Assembly (NCBI GenBank): GCA_022711175.1
Contig: JAKLFM010000001.1
Coordinates: forward strand, 69,780-133,779
Source of the DNA: Bacteroidota bacterium
Lineage (GTDB): Bacteria; Bacteroidota; Bacteroidia; Bacteroidales; UBA4417
Reading direction: 5' to 3'
Length of the DNA: 64,000 bases
The number at the start of each line of letters is the position of its first letter. Positions within the stretch are counted from its first letter, which is position 1. Under the pieces are notes generated by a model. It did not search any database. It worked only from the letters and a program-made list of their open reading frames with translations, and was not told the DNA's origin. This document shows, in pieces, positions 1,023 to 56,788 of this stretch. A program made the position numbers and the translations under genes.

Positions 1023-3050
1023 TTACAGCATCCGCTTCCTCGGAAGGGTGATTGTGAAGGTGGTTCCAGTAGCCCCTTTCAAAATATCGGCATTTGAATC
1101 TACTTTAACATCGCCTTTATGCATTTTCACAATGCCGTATATGATTGGAAGTCCGAGGCCTGTTCCTTTCCCAATGCCTTTGGTAGTAAAAAAAGGTGTG
1201 AAGAGCTTGTCCATATGCTCTTGCAGTATTCCCGAACCATTATCGGTAACACGTATGAAGATAGTTTCATCTGTATCGCTGAGGCTGAGGGTGATTTTAC
1301 CTCCTTCGGGCATTGCCTCAACCGAATTCTTGATCAGGTTTGTAACAACTTGTGTCATTTGGTCGTAATCGAGCATCGCCTTATTGTTGATAAGGTGGTT
1401 TTCGAGTATAAGGCTTATGTTAGAGGGAATCACAACTGAATTCATACTATGTTCGGCGAGCTCTGACAAGTCGATCTCAGTTATGTTCACCTGGTTCTTA
1501 CGTGCGAAGTTCAGTAATCCCCCGACGATTTTCCGGCAACGGTCGGCTTGTTCAACTATGAGTTCCAAATCTTTATGAATGGGGTTTTCCTGGGGAATTT
1601 CTTCGCGTAATATATTGCTGTACATGGTGATAACACCAAGCGGGTTGTTGAGTTCATGAGCAATTCCCGCTGAGAGCTGTCCCATACCTGCTAATTTCTC
1701 CGAGTGTCGCAGGGCTTCCTGCACTGTTGCCAGTTTCTCGTTTGAGATGTTGAGTTCGCGGATATATTTATGCAGTTTTTCGATGGAATATGGCAGGCAC
1801 ATTTCTGTTTCTGCAAGTCCGCTGAGTATGGCTACAGCATGTTCTTCGCATGAATCGTAGCCACAGGCGCCGCAATTGAGGTAATCGCCCGGCCCGTACT
1901 TTCCCATCCTGAACATCACTTCCCTGATTTGCTCGTTTGAAGGCCTCACCCCGCGCATATCGATTGATTTAAATGATCGCGACAGGTCGAGTTTGCTATA
2001 TTCATCAAGATTTTTCTGCCATTCATCGCGATCGATCACGGCCATTTTTGCATTGGCATAATTGATAATTCGCGCCTTTTTAGCGTATCGGTTGCTGCTG
2101 GCCGAAGTGTTGAGGTATGGCGACATGCCGGGGCCCATAATGCAGCCTTCGCAACACAACAGGTGAACATGATGGCCACGCAGGTTGCCTTGTTCATATT
2201 CGCGGAGGGCATCCTGGAAATTGGCCTTTCCGCCAGCAACTATTACATTCTCGCTGAGGATATCCTCGGTGACTTCCATTGTGTTGAGCAGGCCGTGGCT
2301 AAGCGGGAAAATAGCCCCCCTGCCCGACAATGGCGGATCAAATTCGGATGGCGTTATACTTTTTGGATTGATGCGGCTGTCGTTAAACATCTCGCGCAGT
2401 TCCCTGAAAGTGATGGCGTTGTCAATTTCTTTCGATTCGGCTTTTTTTGCCAGGCATGGCCCGATAAAAACCAGAATCGAATCAACACCATAAATGCTTC
2501 TCACAACCCTGGCCATAGCAACCATGGGCGAAACAACCTCAGCCAGGTTACCCACCAGGTCGGGGTAGTAACGTTCAATATATGATACAATAGCAGGGCA
2601 ATCGGATGAAATGGCCGGCAAACCGTTGTCAAGTTGTTCCTTATATTTACGTGCAACCAGATCGGCCCCGAAAGCCACCTCGGTTACATGACGAAAGCCA
2701 AGTTTCCTGATCATGCCTACGAAAACCTTATGATCGGGAATATCGGCAAATTCGGCGGGAAAACTGGGCGCCACCAGGGCAATAACTTTGGCACCGGATT
2801 GTATGAGTTTTGTTACAGGGTCAATTTCGCGGCGAAACACCTTAGCGTTTTGGCTGCAAACCTTTATACAATTGCCGCAGGCAATGCAGCGCTCGGTAAT
2901 CACTTCGGCCTGCCCGCCAGCAATGCGTATGGCTTTGGCCGGACACTCGCGCACACAGGTATAGCACATCCGGCATTTCTCCCTGATGGTGAATACCAGT
3001 TTGGCAATGGCCGGGTTTGGCTGATTTACATTATATTGAGTGTCTTCCAT
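1023..3050 (-). CDS. [FeFe]-hydrogenase-like (H-cluster domain) sensor fused to a histidine kinase (HisKA + HATPase_c)
   Basis: The N-terminus has 2x 4Fe-4S motifs (CRMCYTCVRECP, CIACGNCIKVC). Degenerate H-cluster motifs follow: SSDCPAIV, GPCLAKKAE, LLCCEGCIMGPG, plus CGACGYDSC. After a coiled coil come the H-box AHELNNPLG and DNGSGI...GTGLGL. The gene starts 23 nt downstream of hydA. Confidence 0.85.
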   Translation of the reverse strand: MEDTQYNVNQPNPAIAKLVFTIREKCRMCYTCVRECPAKAIRIAGGQAEVITERCIACGNCIKVCSQNAKVFRREIDPVTKLIQSGAKVIALVAPSFPAEFADIPDHKVFVGMIRKLGFRHVTEVAFGADLVARKYKEQLDNGLPAISSDCPAIVSYIERYYPDLVGNLAEVVSPMVAMARVVRSIYGVDSILVFIGPCLAKKAESKEIDNAITFRELREMFNDSRINPKSITPSEFDPPLSGRGAIFPLSHGLLNTMEVTEDILSENVIVAGGKANFQDALREYEQGNLRGHHVHLLCCEGCIMGPGMSPYLNTSASSNRYAKKARIINYANAKMAVIDRDEWQKNLDEYSKLDLSRSFKSIDMRGVRPSNEQIREVMFRMGKYGPGDYLNCGACGYDSCEEHAVAILSGLAETEMCLPYSIEKLHKYIRELNISNEKLATVQEALRHSEKLAGMGQLSAGIAHELNNPLGVITMYSNILREEIPQENPIHKDLELIVEQADRCRKIVGGLLNFARKNQVNITEIDLSELAEHSMNSVVIPSNISLILENHLINNKAMLDYDQMTQVVTNLIKNSVEAMPEGGKITLSLSDTDETIFIRVTDNGSGILQEHMDKLFTPFFTTKGIGKGTGLGLPIIYGIVKMHKGDVKVDSNADILKGATGTTFTITLPRKRML

Positions 3051-3073: not shown

Positions 3074-4801
3074 TTACAGCAATACTTCCCTTTTTTGGTA
3101 ATCAGTATAGAGCATCTGGCGTATCTCCCCGTTAACGGGCAGATCAAGATAGTTGTCGTAGAGTATTTGCAGATCGGGATTTTTAAAAGGTGTTTTAACA
3201 GGCTCTTTATCGTCAATTTCATATATGGCTTTAGCCCTGGCTTTTACAGCTCCGTCATCATGGCTGGCCGGCTGGCCGCCGCCACCCACGCAGCCACCGG
3301 GGCATGCCATCACTTCAACGAAATGGATATCAGTGCGTCCCGCCTCAATTTCATTCAGCAATGTTTCGGCGTTTCCTATTCCGTTTACAACCGCAAAGCC
3401 TAGCGTAAAGTCGCCAATTTTTACTGTAAACTCTTTAATTCCTTTTGATGACCGAAGCTCGGTTATGCGCTTTGCCTGCAAATCTTTACCGGTAATCATC
3501 ACAAACAGCACCCTGATGAGCGCCTCGGTCAGTCCCCCGCTAACGGCTAACATTTTGCCCGAAGCACTCCGGCTTCGGTACGGCTGATCCGACATTTCGG
3601 GTTCAACCTGCTGAACATCAATGCCATTAAGACGAATCAGCCTGGCGAGCTCGCGGGTTGTCAGCACCATATCAACATCCGTAATACCTTTGTGAGTCAT
3701 TTGTTCGCGTTGCGACTCAAACTTCTTCGCGATACAGGGCATAGCCGAAACGGAATAGACTTTTTCGGCCTTTAATTTCCTGCTTTGAGTAAAGTGATTG
3801 CTTATCAACGTGCCCATCATTTGCTGTGGCGATTTGCACGTTGAAATATGATTGAGAAGCTGAGGCCTGAATTGCTCGGCATACTTGATCCATGCAGGGC
3901 AACAGCTCGAGAACATTGGTGTTTTACCACCATCGCGAAGCCTGCTGAGCAATTCGCCGGCAAGCTCGGTAATGTACAGATCGGCTGCAAACGAGGTGTC
4001 GAATACGAAATTGAAACCAATTTTTCGTAGAACAGCGTACATTACCCCTTCCATATCTTTTCCTGTCCTGAAGCCAAATTCCTCGGCCAGGGTGACCGAT
4101 AAGGTAGGTGAACACTGAATAACCGTTTGTATTTCAGGATTATGGAGTTTCTCCTGGAGTTCAGCAGGATGCTTTTTTTCCGTTAACGCGCCTGTAGGGC
4201 AAACAAGAATACACTGTCCGCAGTTGATACAACTCGAAAGGTTCATGCCTTTGTTGAAGGCTGGACCTACCTGCATTTCGTTACCGCGCCCGATAAATTC
4301 AAGGGCTGTAACATTCTGAATTTCTTCGCAAACCCTTATGCACCTGCCGCAGAGAATGCACTTGGCGGGATCACGGAATAGCGAAGCACTTGAAGGATCG
4401 GTTTTGTATTTATTCTTTTTACCAAAGAACCTGCGTTCGCGAACATAGAGGTCTTCGGAAAACTTTTGCAATTCGCAGTTACCGTTACTTTCGCAATAGA
4501 GACAGTCGTCAGGATGATTGCTGAGCAGCAATTCGATGTTTGTTTTTCGGGCTTTGATGACGCGGGGTGAATGTGTACGAATTTTCATCCACTCTTCAAC
4601 CGGATGTGAGCAGGCAGGCAGCAAGCCTTGTTTTCCTTCAACCTCAACAACGCACATACGGCATGCCCCCGAAGGCTGCAATCCGCGTATATGGCACAAC
4701 GTTGGAATGCTTATGGCATTTCGCTCAAGCGCCGACAAAATCGTTTCGCCGTTGCGCGCCTTTATGGTTTTACCGTTGACTTCTATATCGAAAAACATCA
4801 T
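3074..4801 (-). CDS. hydA: [FeFe]-hydrogenase catalytic subunit (HydA/HndD type, 575 aa)
   Basis: N-terminal 2Fe-2S and several 4Fe-4S motifs are present. All three canonical H-cluster motifs are intact: FSSCCPAW, MPCIAKKFE, EVMACPGGCVGGGGQP. Confidence 0.92.
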   Translation of the reverse strand: MMFFDIEVNGKTIKARNGETILSALERNAISIPTLCHIRGLQPSGACRMCVVEVEGKQGLLPACSHPVEEWMKIRTHSPRVIKARKTNIELLLSNHPDDCLYCESNGNCELQKFSEDLYVRERRFFGKKNKYKTDPSSASLFRDPAKCILCGRCIRVCEEIQNVTALEFIGRGNEMQVGPAFNKGMNLSSCINCGQCILVCPTGALTEKKHPAELQEKLHNPEIQTVIQCSPTLSVTLAEEFGFRTGKDMEGVMYAVLRKIGFNFVFDTSFAADLYITELAGELLSRLRDGGKTPMFSSCCPAWIKYAEQFRPQLLNHISTCKSPQQMMGTLISNHFTQSRKLKAEKVYSVSAMPCIAKKFESQREQMTHKGITDVDMVLTTRELARLIRLNGIDVQQVEPEMSDQPYRSRSASGKMLAVSGGLTEALIRVLFVMITGKDLQAKRITELRSSKGIKEFTVKIGDFTLGFAVVNGIGNAETLLNEIEAGRTDIHFVEVMACPGGCVGGGGQPASHDDGAVKARAKAIYEIDDKEPVKTPFKNPDLQILYDNYLDLPVNGEIRQMLYTDYQKREVLL

Positions 4802-35288: not shown

Positions 35289-35322
35289 TTGAAACTTGAA
35301 ACTTCAAACATTAAACACCCCA
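35289..35322 (+). repeat. Start-codon-proximal heptad tract TTGAAAC TTGAAAC TTCAAAC ATTAAAC
   Basis: The tract was seen directly and ends at the mqnD ATG (35323). Confidence 0.6.
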
Positions 35323-51093: not shown

Positions 51094-51191
51094 GGTTAAT
51101 GGTAAATACTTAATGGTAAGTGCCGGGTGCCAGGTTCTGAGTGCCGAATTCCAGGTACCGGAAAAGGTACCTGGCACCCGGAACCCGGCAC
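51094..51191. repeat. Heptanucleotide-periodic inverted-repeat element between arcC and the OTC gene
   Basis: Fourteen consecutive in-phase 7-mers are present: GGTTAAT GGTAAAT ACTTAAT GGTAAGT GCCGGGT GCCAGGT TCTGAGT GCCGAAT TCCAGGT ACCGGAA AAGGTAC CTGGCAC CCGGAAC CCGGCAC. The central perfect palindrome is CCAGGTACC-N6-GGTACCTGG. Confidence 0.7.
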
Positions 51192-53224: not shown

Positions 53225-53341
53225 AATTGCATCCAATGATCAACGTGAATTCGCAACAGTCTGCATAATCAACGTCCTGAAGTCTGGATTCGCTCATCAC
53301 CCCAGGCCATTTCGTGCGAATTTAAACCGTACTTTTGCAGC

Positions 53342-54634
53342 ATGGACAAAAAGCGCGTCGCCTTTCATACGCTGGGTTGCAAGCTGAACTTTTCGGAAAC
53401 TTCCACTATCAGCCGCCAACTGGGAACGGATCATTTCCAACTGGTTGATTTTGAGGATGAAGCCGATGTTTATGTTGTACATACCTGTTCGGTGACGGCA
53501 GTTGCTGAGAAAAAATGCCGGGCAGCAATCCGTAAGGCGCACAAAACCAATCCTTCGTCGAATGTGGTTGTGATGGGTTGTGCTGCCCAGGCACACCCGG
53601 AGGCTTTTGAAAAAATGGAAGGGGTTACCCTTGTTCTGGGTAACAATGATAAGTTCAGGCTGAAAGAACTGCTTGAAAAGCAGAACGGGCAGCCCGGACA
53701 TATTTCGGACATCAGCAAAATAAAGGAATTTGTTCCCTCCTACTCAGCCAACGACCGCACGCGTTCGTTTTTCAAAGTGCAGGACGGGTGTGACTACTTT
53801 TGCACATTTTGCTCCATCCCATACATGCGCGGGCGAAGCCGCAGCGACAGCATAAAGAATACCATGAAAGTCGCCCATGAGATTGCAGCCACCGAAATGC
53901 GGGAAGTTATACTTACCGGCGTGAATATCGGAGATTTTGGACACCGCAACGGTGAGAAATTTGTTGATTTGCTGCGGGAGTTGGATCAACTCGATGGTAT
54001 TGACCGCATCCGGATTTCCTCTGTTGAGCCGGAACTGCTTACCGACGAAATCATCGAACTGGTAGCATCCTCAAAGAAACTGCTTCCTCATTTCCACATT
54101 CCCCTGCAGTCGGGTTCGGATAAAATACTTGCGCTCATGAAACGCAAATATAAACGTGAAGTGTTTGAATCGCGCGTTCTCAAAATCAAATCGTTGATGC
54201 CCGCTGCATGCATTGCTGCTGATGTAATTGTCGGATTCCCCGGTGAAACAACTGAGGATTTCGAGGACACATACCGGTTTATTAACGGGCTGGATATCAC
54301 ATACCTTCACGTATTTACATACTCTGAACGACCCGGTACCAGGGCAGTTGACTTTGAAGGACATTTAGATGAGAAGGAAAAGCGCCGTCGGAGTGCTCTC
54401 TTACACGAATTGTCGGAATCGAAAAAGCTGGCCTTTTACAATTCAAACATCGGTAAAACCTTCAACGTGCTGTGGGAATCGGACAACGTAAGCGGTATGA
54501 TGCACGGCTGGACCGAAAATTACATTCATGTGCGCACACCATTCAACCCCGCGCTCATTAATAAAGTCGAAACGGTCAGATTGTTATCGGTAGCAAGGGA
54601 GAAAGAACTGATCTTTGATGTTGAAAATACTTAA
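53342..54634 (+). CDS. mtaB: tRNA t6A37 methylthiotransferase MtaB (radical SAM MiaB-like)
   Basis: An N-terminal UPF0004 domain (HTLGCKLNFSE) is followed by the CDYFCTFC radical-SAM motif and a C-terminal TRAM-like region. Confidence 0.85.
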   Translation: MDKKRVAFHTLGCKLNFSETSTISRQLGTDHFQLVDFEDEADVYVVHTCSVTAVAEKKCRAAIRKAHKTNPSSNVVVMGCAAQAHPEAFEKMEGVTLVLGNNDKFRLKELLEKQNGQPGHISDISKIKEFVPSYSANDRTRSFFKVQDGCDYFCTFCSIPYMRGRSRSDSIKNTMKVAHEIAATEMREVILTGVNIGDFGHRNGEKFVDLLRELDQLDGIDRIRISSVEPELLTDEIIELVASSKKLLPHFHIPLQSGSDKILALMKRKYKREVFESRVLKIKSLMPAACIAADVIVGFPGETTEDFEDTYRFINGLDITYLHVFTYSERPGTRAVDFEGHLDEKEKRRRSALLHELSESKKLAFYNSNIGKTFNVLWESDNVSGMMHGWTENYIHVRTPFNPALINKVETVRLLSVAREKELIFDVENT

Positions 54635-54635
54635 A

Positions 54636-54761
54636 GTTCCGGGTGCCGGGTTCCATGTGCCAGGTTCCAATTGGGTAGCCTTGTTCAACGGCAACACTAC
54701 GGCGCCCGGCACCCGGCACGCGGAACCTGAAACTTGAAACCTGAAACCTGAAACTAAAAAA
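54636..54761. repeat. Heptanucleotide-periodic inverted-repeat element immediately upstream of lgt
   Basis: Five in-phase units (GTTCCGG GTGCCGG GTTCCAT GTGCCAG GTTCCAA) are followed by a 35-nt spacer. Then come CCGGCAC CCGGCAC GCGGAAC CTGAAAC TTGAAAC CTGAAAC CTGAAAC, in the same 7-nt phase and ending 9 nt before the ATG. Confidence 0.75.
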
Positions 54762-54769
54762 ATCATCCT

Positions 54770-56788
54770 ATGTTCCCACGATTCAGCGACATGCTCAACT
54801 ACCTCTTCGGAACGAACTGGAATCTTCCGGTTCAAACCTACGGTTTCTTTCTTGCCCTGGCATTTGTGGTCGGCGCCACCATCCTTTACTTAGAGATGCA
54901 GCGCAAGGAAAAGGAAGGATTGCTGCTTCCGCAGAAGCGCAAAACCCTGAAAAACAAGCCTCCAACTACCAATGAAATCATTATCGGGACCATTGCCGCG
55001 TTTATTATTGTCTGGAAATTCGGCGGGATAATAACCCAATATGCCGATTTTTCGAAAAACCCGCAACATTACCTCACTTCAGGATCAGGGAATGCCTGGT
55101 TAGGAATCCTGGCAGCCGCAGCGTATGCGCTTTACCAGTTTTACCGGCAGAACAAACTTAAAAAGTTGAAAGCTGAATATATTGACGAGGTGATTCACCC
55201 GAAAGACCATACCTGGAACATCCTGATCATAGCCGTAGTTGCTGCACTCATCGGGTCAAAACTATTCGATATACTCGACAACTTCGGCGATTTTCTGCAA
55301 AATCCTGTCAAGAGTCTTTTTTCGTTCAGCGGTCTCACCTTCTATGGCGGGCTTATAGTTACAGTGATCACCCTGCTGTGGTACATGAAAAAGATAAAAC
55401 TCGACTGGCATCATGTCATTGATGCGGCAGCTCCTGCCATCATGATCGGGTATGCCGTGGGCAGGCTTGGTTGCCAGTTTGCCGGCGACGGTTGCTGGGG
55501 AATTGAAAATACCATGCCCAAACCTGAGTGGCTGGCCTGGCTGCCCGACTGGCTATGGGCTTTTAACTATCCGCACAATGTGTTGAATGAAGGTATTCCC
55601 ATAGCATCGTGTGAAGGCGATCATTGCCGCATGCTTGCCAATCCCGTATTCCCTACGCCCTTGTATGAGTCGATCGTATCATTTATCTGGTTTTTAGTGT
55701 TGTGGTTAATTCGCAAGCCCATTAAGGCGCCAGTTGTTCTCTTCGGGATTTACTTGATGATGAACGGGATCGAAAGGTTCCTGGTTGAAAAAATCAGGGT
55801 GAATAACCGTTTCGACTTTCTCGGCATGAAGGTCACGCAGGCTGAGATTATTTCAACCTGCCTTTTTATCGGCGGAATTATTATCATATGGTACTTCAGC
55901 CGGCAATACAAAAAGCTAAAAACAGAAATTTCTTTATATCTCAACTTACTTACATTCTGTCAGTTCATGAACCTTGAGAATATTTGCCACTCGGTGATAG
56001 AGATTGCCAGGGAAGCGGGACAATTCCAGATGGCTGAAATCAACAAAGTCCGTTCGGGTGATATAGAAGTAAAAGGACTGCATAATTTCGTCACATATGT
56101 TGATAAGACTTCTGAAGAGCAGATCGTTGCAGCATTGCAGGAACTCATTCCCGAAGCCGGTTTTGTAGCCGAGGAAGGCACGTCCGTTCACAAAGGGAGT
56201 CGTTTTAACTGGGTAGTTGACCCTCTCGACGGCACTACAAATTACATTCACAGGATTCCGCTATTCTCCGTCAGTATTGCGCTGATGGAAGGCGACGAAG
56301 TTGTGATAGGTGTGATCTATGAGCCCAATCTCAACGAGTGCTTTTACACCTGGCAGGGCGCCCCGGCCTATCTTAACGGCAGTGTTATAAGGGTTTCAAA
56401 CGAAACTTCGATGAGCAGGGCATTGCTCGCAACCGGTTTCCCGTATTATGATTACGGGCGGATGAAGGGTTACATGGATTTGTTCATGTATTTTGCCGAA
56501 AATACTTCCGGCCTCCGAAGATTGGGCAGTGCTGCCGTTGATCTCGCCTGGACGGCCTGCGGACGTTGCGAAGGTTTTTACGAGTACGGGCTGCACCCGT
56601 GGGACGTAGCTGCAGGTGCATTGCTGGTTGCAAATGCAGGTGGCAGGGTCACCGATTTCAAAGGAAGAAATGATTATATTTTCGGTGGCGAAATGCTGGC
56701 AACCAACAAGATACTGCACACTGAAATGCTTGATGCCGTAAAAGTACATTTTCCGGAAAAGAGTAAAGAGACCGGCATCAATAGCTGA
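54770..56788 (+). CDS. lgt: Prolipoprotein diacylglyceryl transferase (Lgt, residues 1-399) joined in frame, with no stop codon, to an inositol-monophosphatase/SuhB-family module (from ATG 55967)
   Basis: Lgt motifs are GLTFYGGLI and [14 protein letters not shown]. The IMPase motifs are FVAEEG and [14 protein letters not shown]. 55967 is in frame with 54770 (1197 nt = 399 codons). No stop occurs in the AT-rich linker. Confidence 0.75.

Follow-up and report, generated by a model that had tools for sequence, protein, structure and literature searches.

The window, by which we mean the whole 64-kb stretch of DNA that was analysed, comes from an uncultured member of the Bacteroidales and contains, between the genes mtaB and lgt, two arrays of 7-nt units (heptads) that are inverted with respect to each other. 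The features of this locus are as follows.

53342..54634, plus strand: mtaB, a MiaB/MtaB-type radical-SAM methylthiotransferase gene, 430 aa, with the Pfam domains PF00919 and PF04055
54632-54634, plus strand: mtaB stop codon, TAA
54636..54670, plus strand: left arm, five G/T-rich heptads (GTTCCGG GTGCCGG GTTCCAT GTGCCAG GTTCCAA)
54671..54705, plus strand: loop or spacer of 35 nt without heptad similarity, present as a single copy in the genome (blastn-short)
54706..54726, plus strand: GC-rich part of the right arm (CCGGCAC CCGGCAC GCGGAAC), the reverse complement of the start of the left arm
54727..54754, plus strand: A-rich part of the right arm (CTGAAAC TTGAAAC CTGAAAC CTGAAAC), TRF period 7, 4.4 copies, score 55
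54755..54769, plus strand: remainder of the leader, TAAAAAAATCATCCT, free of G (A, C and T only) and unpaired in the MFE structure
54770, plus strand: lgt start codon, ATG
54770..56788, plus strand: lgt, encoding Lgt fused to an inositol-monophosphatase domain, 672 aa, with the Pfam domains PF01790 (LGT) and PF00459

These Pfam domains agree with the gene names given in a first-pass annotation of the window, and its layout and coordinates of the heptads hold almost to the base. The left arm begins at the second nucleotide past the mtaB stop, with one A between them, whereas at the other end the leader remainder opens with a TAAAAAA heptad ending at 54761 and has the same composition as leaders genome-wide. 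Tandem Repeats Finder (TRF) resolves the spacer into three period-7/14 arrays (54643-54669, 54700-54727 and 54724-54754). A Bacteroidetes-type -7 box, TACTTTTG, stands directly 5' of the mtaB ATG and is conserved in relatives. No TAnnTTTG -7 box is found in the mtaB-lgt spacer, so that lgt has no box of its own. Since mtaB has a conserved -7 box and lgt has none, the two genes are probably co-transcribed. A promoter scan gave one weak sigma-70-like match, which falls among the CTGAAAC units and is no more than shuffled sequence would yield.

Because the G/T-rich arm precedes the C/A-rich arm, the intercistronic RNA can fold as a long imperfect hairpin. Without gaps, the best inverted repeat consists of two 16-nt arms (GTTCCGGGTGCCGGGT and ACCCGGCACGCGGAAC) that pair with one mismatch and enclose a 59-nt loop; these arms lie within 1 nt of the pairing between 54636-54653 and 54710-54727 previously read from the sequence. 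Folding of the RNA, a check that the first-pass annotation had proposed, gave -50 kcal/mol (z -3.1) for the plus strand and -55.6 kcal/mol (z -3.2) for the minus strand; both strands fold far better than shuffles, and none of 200 shuffles folded as well as the native spacer RNA. In the MFE structure the A-rich heptads of the right arm pair more weakly, with GTTCCAG-type units. The predicted stem reaches to about 15 nt 5' of the lgt ATG, and its base joins the region just past the mtaB stop to the lgt initiation region. The suggestion that the element ends in an A/C-rich, unstructured translation-initiation leader is thus borne out in part: the start-proximal half is G-poor and A-rich, but a hairpin is predicted up to about 15 nt before the ATG. 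The element has too few G-runs for a quadruplex.

A stable GC-rich hairpin directly past a stop codon raises the possibility of an intrinsic transcription terminator of mtaB. However, the stem is followed by CTGAAAC units and not by a U-run, no terminator match was found on the plus strand between 54300 and 55000, and the spacer has no promoter box for lgt. We consider a terminator highly improbable, and the earlier judgement that this is not a classical one is upheld. The element is likewise not a CRISPR array, as had been stated, since it consists of contiguous 7-nt units and not of 23-50-nt repeats with unique spacers.

Further arrays of the same kind occur within the window.

51094..51191, minus strand: second full copy of the hairpin pair, found by pattern match, fold -51.8 kcal/mol, z -4.0
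35289..35309, plus strand: solo C/A-type array (TTGAAAC TTGAAAC TTCAAAC), 13 nt 5' of a start codon
45130..45152, plus strand: solo C/A-type array of GC-rich units (ACGGCAC CCGGAAC ACGGAAC), located in the next gene's leader

The second full copy lies 3.5 kb from the element at 54636, between two co-directional minus-strand genes that the first-pass annotation names arcC and OTC. Its left side runs from the stop codon through GTGCCGG GTTCCGG GTGCCAG GTACC to a short loop, and its right side from GGTAC through CTGGAAT TCGGCAC TCAGAAC CTGGCAC CCGGCAC and TTACCAT-type heptads to the ATG. The two arms of this copy are 2 nt out of phase with each other. The single continuous 7-nt phase described for the element at 54636 therefore holds there but is not a trait of the family, and in view of this 2-nt offset the in-phase arms at 54636 are what chance would give in one case out of seven.

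The palindromic architecture and a second full copy only 3.5 kb away are features that a REP/BIME-like or MITE-like mobile or dispersed structured element would show, and a REP/MITE-like repeat family had been put forward. This idea is contradicted by the 35-nt core, which is unique in the genome: searched with blastn-short against the whole genome, it matched only itself, apart from chance 12-19-mers. The junctions between arms and loop are also unique, and elsewhere only the heptads match, recurring in arrays of any length. The two copies share heptads alone and differ in length, loop and arm phase; separate terminal inverted repeats and a target-site duplication are both absent. There was no Rfam match, the best scores in a search of 54000-55400 against Rfam 15 being 19.3 and 11 bits against gathering thresholds of 83 and 100. 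We therefore give next to no credence to a mobile or REP-like origin.

To place the heptads in their genomic context, we scanned the genome (3.6 Mb in 222 contigs, 45% GC) with TRF at a score of at least 40, using a locally shuffled genome as the control. Period-7 arrays numbered 84 in the genome and 1 in the shuffled control. Period 8 gave 25 arrays against none after shuffling, and among the periods that are not multiples of 3 no other came near the count for period 7. Merging periods 7, 14 and 21 gave 89 arrays, 83 of which lie outside ORFs although the non-coding share of the genome is only 11%; gene boundaries for this count come from a simple ORF map covering 89% of the genome, and not from a trained gene finder. 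Heptad arrays are thus far commoner between ORFs than composition predicts, as the first-pass annotation had expected of a genuine element. A 39-aa call in L081 is an example of a spurious ORF seeded by an array. Fourteen of the 89 arrays lie within 700 nt of a contig end (expected, 7%), and because of this enrichment the census is a lower bound. With a stricter detector (mismatch penalty -4) the degenerate arrays were under-counted. Because the arrays fill only about 1% of the spacers, global lag autocorrelation of the intergenic sequence gave only a faint signal at 7, 14 and 21 nt and is of little use here.

The arrays draw on a small vocabulary. Among 470 array units the top six account for 44%, the commonest being TTCAAAC (60), CCGGCAC (40), TTGAAAC (39) and TTTAAAC (31), with CCGGAAC (19), CTGAAAC (17), ATCAAAC (16) and CATTAAC (14) among the rest. 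Units ending in AAC make up 61% of the total, and 48% of arrays contain AAAC, for which 8% would be expected. The same unit families recur genome-wide, so the earlier suggestion of a dispersed family is correct at the level of the heptads.

The arrays also follow a rule of orientation relative to genes. Within 40 nt 5' of a start codon the sense strand of the array is C/A-rich in 33 cases and G/T-rich in 8, which agrees with the earlier expectation of a conserved orientation relative to downstream genes. Within 15 nt past a stop codon there is no bias (18 C/A and 24 G/T), and farther from the stop the C/A bias reappears because arrays there are near the next start. Leaders throughout the genome contain 12-16% G and up to 44% A, with a Shine-Dalgarno (SD)-like core in only 6%. 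Such G-poor, A-rich, SD-less leaders are the expectation for Bacteroidota. No TAnnTTTG box was found in the array, in the gap between array and ATG or in the 100 nt upstream for 42 of 46 start-proximal arrays; across the whole genome, 26-37% of genes with spacers of at least 40 nt have such a box. Start-proximal arrays are probably transcribed, either as leaders or as intercistronic RNA.

It is possible, though on balance doubtful, that positive selection maintains the start-proximal C/A-rich heptads as a leader or insulator for SD-less initiation that is unstructured, rich in A and free of G, tandem repetition being the cheapest route to such a sequence. The 33:8 excess of the C/A-rich sense within 40 nt of starts, the match between the arrays and general leader composition and the likely transcription of the 42 box-less arrays are all consistent with this, and MacGregor has proposed a translational role for TAACTGA repeats (PMC4679880). 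However, a purifying filter on orientation predicts an equal bias without any benefit from the arrays themselves, orthologous genes in congeners are often free of arrays (Rpe 0/4 and LOG 1/4 with an array), and much of the lgt leader is predicted to be paired.

Inverted pairs are the minority arrangement. Neighbouring arrays in the source genome share the same orientation in 21 cases and are opposed in 4 (TRF), so that the idea of hairpin pairs as a favoured configuration is not supported. Opposed neighbours always have the GT-rich array first and the CA-rich array second (TRF, 4:0, with further cases found by an inverted-repeat search). Among 45 genomes of the genus, the pattern of two GTKCCRG units, 0-60 nt and two CYGGMAC units occurs at 12 distinct sites in 10 genomes, and the mirrored pattern, with the CYGGMAC units first, occurs at none. 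The GT-then-CA order reads identically on both strands and is the only inverted order that places a C/A arm beside any flanking start, so that the leader filter alone can explain the 12:0 count. All four GC-rich hairpins in the source genome lie in co-directional spacers and begin 0-7 nt past a stop.

Relatives, labelled as Bacteroidales or Lentimicrobiaceae MAGs, show how the spacer changes over time. An exact-protein search with MtaB recovered the identical source metagenome contig alone, and strain variation was therefore read from the Lgt cluster. In a sister species, whose lgt is about 80% identical to that of the source genome at the DNA level, the mtaB-lgt spacer consists of (GTGCCRG)12-19, a 13-nt linker and (CTGAAAC)10-17: the unit families are the same and the arrangement is another, the CCGGCAC arm being absent from this spacer. 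The source genome has five GT units and four CA units of the CTGAAAC type. Two assemblies of the sister species, L082 and L084, have flanks that are 99.5% identical, but one carries 15 GT units and 10 CA units and the other at least 19 and 17, as counted in short-read assemblies, which can miscount long arrays, and with an N gap inside the L082 array. Nine Logan contigs break inside the CA array of the sister species. The (GUGCCAG)n and (CUGAAAC)n tracts of this species can still zip together through 5-bp CAGGU/ACCUG helices (-84 kcal/mol, z -3.85). A third species (L092), roughly equidistant, has an 80-nt spacer with array remnants only and no structure (z 0.29).

In congeners whose MtaB is about 69% identical, the mtaB-lgt synteny is preserved and unrelated 7-8-nt repeats fill the spacer, for example CCCCTTGT, CCTAACAG, TTTGAAT, CTTAAAA and CCCTAAC. 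Other orthologous spacers behave in various ways. The spacer 5' of hisS carries arrays in five of five congeners, with different units in each; the folE spacer has two clear arrays and two remnants among five congeners, the obg spacer has arrays in one or two of five, the spacer of the LOG-family gene in one of four and the rpe spacer in none of four. In total about 10 of 23 orthologous spacers bear arrays, where the base rate is a few percent, the relatives being phylogenetically non-independent samples. Of 18 congeners sampled, 11 have the YYSRMAC vocabulary, as does 1 of 12 other families, with a reversed control near zero. Two genomes of the same genus without this vocabulary have 12 and 8 period-7 arrays per 200 kb, built of other units. 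In two genomes of other families the densities are 1 array per 122 kb and, for AT-rich arrays of low complexity, 3 per 100 kb.

This turnover bears on the idea that the heptads are a periodic binding array, in which each 7-nt unit would make one contact with a protein such as S1, a Csp- or KH-type protein or a DNA-binding protein. The constant -AAC end, the excess of AAAC and the strict 7-nt period would suit such an array, and the literature contains speculation on S1, Csp, CsrA and an unnamed Nostoc factor. However, congeners carry unrelated units at the same spacers, the copy number is unconstrained, ranging from 0 to 17, and away from start codons both orientations are found. A binding array is therefore very unlikely.

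The same comparisons bear on the reading in which selection maintains the stop-to-start hairpin as an intercistronic control element, with slippage in the arms tuning its effect. In one version, a double-strand-specific RNase such as RNase III would cut the stem and so uncouple the stabilities of the mtaB and lgt halves of the mRNA; in another, ribosomes terminating at the mtaB stop would melt the stem and thus couple lgt initiation to mtaB translation. The base of the stem unites the mtaB stop with the lgt start region, arms begin 0-7 nt past the stop in four of four GC-rich hairpins, the GT-then-CA order is exclusive (12:0), the sister species retains hairpin potential through other pairings (z -3.85), and the genome encodes RNase III. 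The arrays in about 10 of 23 orthologous spacers could also mean function rather than permissiveness. There is a precedent in Haemophilus influenzae hmw1A, where a (ATCTTTC)n repeat in the 5'-UTR contributes to a long hairpin that is processed by RNase III and sets both expression and repeat dynamics (PMC12721329). In both systems a heptamer simple-sequence repeat (SSR) forms an arm of a long hairpin and RNase III is present, with transcription of the leader presumed here. However, hmw1A is a single phase-variable adhesin locus of a pathogen in which the other arm is a non-repeat, G-rich sequence, whereas here both arms are SSRs and the genes are housekeeping genes; the likeness rests on hairpin potential and the RNase III gene.

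Several observations weigh against selection for the hairpin. Most arrays are solo and neighbours are co-oriented 21:4. In the third species the mtaB-lgt spacer has neither arrays nor structure (z 0.29), and in the sister species the GC-rich right arm is absent. The filter for G-poor leaders already accounts for the 12:0 order. We consider a selected control element at mtaB-lgt unlikely. Still less likely is its generalisation, in which stop-start heptamer hairpins in SD-less Bacteroidota would be selected intercistronic rheostats, cut by RNase III or melted by terminating ribosomes, with slippage in either arm continuously resetting the expression ratio between adjacent housekeeping cistrons. 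Selection for such rheostats would show itself in the strict 12:0 arm order and in arrays that stay at the same spacers while their units are completely replaced. We regard the hairpin as a probable by-product of two arrays lying in inverse orientation, and not as a conserved structured RNA. Even so, it may alter the stability, processing or translation of the predicted bicistronic mRNA, and array length may modulate such an effect. Both a function of the hairpin and selection of the leader are compatible with an origin by slippage.

We propose, with a probability of about 75%, that the element is a local case of the intergenic heptanucleotide SSRs that populate the whole genome and genus, similar to the short tandemly repeated repetitive (STRR) sequences and long SSRs (LSSRs) of other bacteria and filtered by the leader rule. 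Replication slippage would create and resize the arrays, which would endure in permissive spacers while their unit sequence drifts, and beside start codons a selective filter would tolerate only the G-poor, C/A-rich strand in the mRNA. Under such a start-side filter, two inverted arrays at mtaB-lgt can only stand with the GT arm first and the CA arm second. The features that define this class are found here: tandem 7-nt units beyond chance; dispersed, mostly non-coding arrays with a small vocabulary; copy numbers that differ in 7-nt steps among strains and close species, as read from short-read assemblies; and, as in Xanthomonas, a convergent inverted heptamer pair near the end of the upstream ORF that is capable of forming a stem-loop. 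Fast length change, concerted evolution and turnover of the units and persistence in permissive spacers are the behaviour of a microsatellite, and not that of a conserved RNA or binding site. MutS and MutL are both intact in the genome, which rules out loss of mismatch repair as the cause of the arrays.

The first-pass annotation had not recognised the element as a described one. Intergenic heptanucleotide tandem repeats are in fact published, including convergent inverted pairs and arrays that abut start codons (PMC4692102, PMC4679880). In Xanthomonas, GGGAATC repeats are 89-93% intergenic, at a mean distance of 28 nt from the upstream ORF. Among 186 repeat patterns in X. campestris (Xcc) there are 70 cases of convergent inverted pairs that could form stem-loops, and the repeats differ in length and sequence from one species to another (Rehm et al. 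2015, PMC4692102). The Xanthomonas GGGAATC and Nostoc GGGGA(C/T)T SSRs resemble the arrays described here in being degenerate 7-nt arrays, about 90% intergenic, close to the upstream 3' end and arranged in part as inverted pairs. They differ in that the units here are GTKCCRG/CYGGMAC and TTSAAAC, the host belongs to an uncultured Bacteroidales genus, there is a clear bias towards the C/A-rich sense beside start codons, and the element at 54636 has too few G-runs for a quadruplex.

TAACTGA repeats abut SD-less start codons in Beggiatoaceae, cyanobacteria and five Bacteroidetes, show 7-nt indels between strains and terminate contigs (MacGregor 2015, PMC4679880). The likeness to the present arrays lies in intergenic heptamers in forward orientation, a few nucleotides 5' of SD-less starts, and in the contig breaks. 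In contrast, the unit here is CTGAAAC as against CTGATAA (TAACTGA in the same rotation), many related and GC-rich units occur, and inverted pairs are regular, whereas MacGregor's genome has one indirect repeat (PMC4679880). A Nostoc preprint describes TTTTGAA repeats near start codons with regulatory effects. Heptamer-dominated long SSRs (Mrazek 2007) and cyanobacterial STRR sequences (Mazel 1990), as summarised in PMC4679880 and PMC4692102, are likewise lineage-specific, heptamer-dominated and non-coding, and according to these summaries polymerase slippage with a 7-nt preference has been proposed as the cause. To the extent that these summaries describe them, the cyanobacterial sequences differ in that the STRR1-3 units are absent here, the phylum is another, and MutS and MutL are intact in the present genome. 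Tandem runs of TAACTGA, STRR1-3, GGGAATC, GGGGATT or TTTTGAA were not found anywhere in the genome. The heptamer class is therefore already known, and what is new is the unit vocabulary and the host lineage.

In several bacterial lineages heptanucleotides dominate among the long simple-sequence repeats, and we know of no answer, after 35 years, to why the unit has 7 nt or what the general function might be. This genus provides a clean natural data set for such questions, with a small and related vocabulary, a start-side orientation rule, inverted pairs in one order only, copy-number change at the strain level and arrays that persist while their units are replaced. If the effects of the hairpin and leader are not real, the arrays are a nuisance that breaks short-read assemblies, seeds spurious ORF calls and creates false TTG starts. 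If they are real, the arrays would provide a cheap and mutable setting of expression within the operons of bacteria that lack SD-dependent initiation.

Directly 5' of the mtaB ATG (window 53318-53344) lies a Bacteroidetes-type -7 box, TAnnTTTG (e.g. TACTTTTGCAGCATG), which is kept in relatives (L003, L004, L005, L007, L016 and L022, around 2985-3003). Because this box abuts the start codon, its position implies that the mtaB mRNA would be nearly leaderless. In several relatives, heptad arrays are found just 5' of the mtaB -7 box, within promoter DNA and not in a leader.

The public gene call set places a 39-aa ORF across the heptad arrays (L081 1438-1557, corresponding to window about 54618-54737); this is almost certainly a spurious call, arising because the GC-rich repeats are stop-free. 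The lgt gene that follows encodes Lgt and an inositol-monophosphatase-family protein as a single 672-aa ORF in the source genome (window 54770-56788), whereas the sister species carries them as two genes of 389 and 266 aa with a 27-nt gap (L082 1201-3198). Either the two genes have genuinely fused, or a stop codon has been lost. One assembly, L083 (300-835), encodes the identical Lgt protein in a wholly different upstream context, in which mtaB is absent and a terminator-like hairpin, CCTTCCAGGTTT...AAACCTGGAAGG-TTTTT, lies upstream of lgt. The junction with this context falls at the (CTGAAAC)n array: either the DNA was rearranged at this repeat, or the assembly is chimeric across it.

Another small palindrome, TCCCGATAGCTATCGGGA, is dispersed in spacers throughout the genome, with 13 exact copies as well as variants such as TCCCGAAAGCTTTCGGGA. 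Palindromes of this type, which often adjoin heptad arrays, occur for example at C203:13075-13100, C2 and C163 in the source genome, and are also present in congeners (e.g. L004, about 4470-4490).

A more distant Bacteroidales MAG (L015 922-1087) contains an inverted pair built from a different heptamer, with approximately 11 copies of CAGTCGG/CAGTTGG preceding (GACTGCC/GACTGAA)n, and the arms again run from GT-rich to CA-rich. A near-perfect (ACACTAA)x14 array directly 3' of mtaB in a marine Flavobacteriales MAG (L052 4159-4258) shows that the heptamer phenomenon extends well beyond the source genus.
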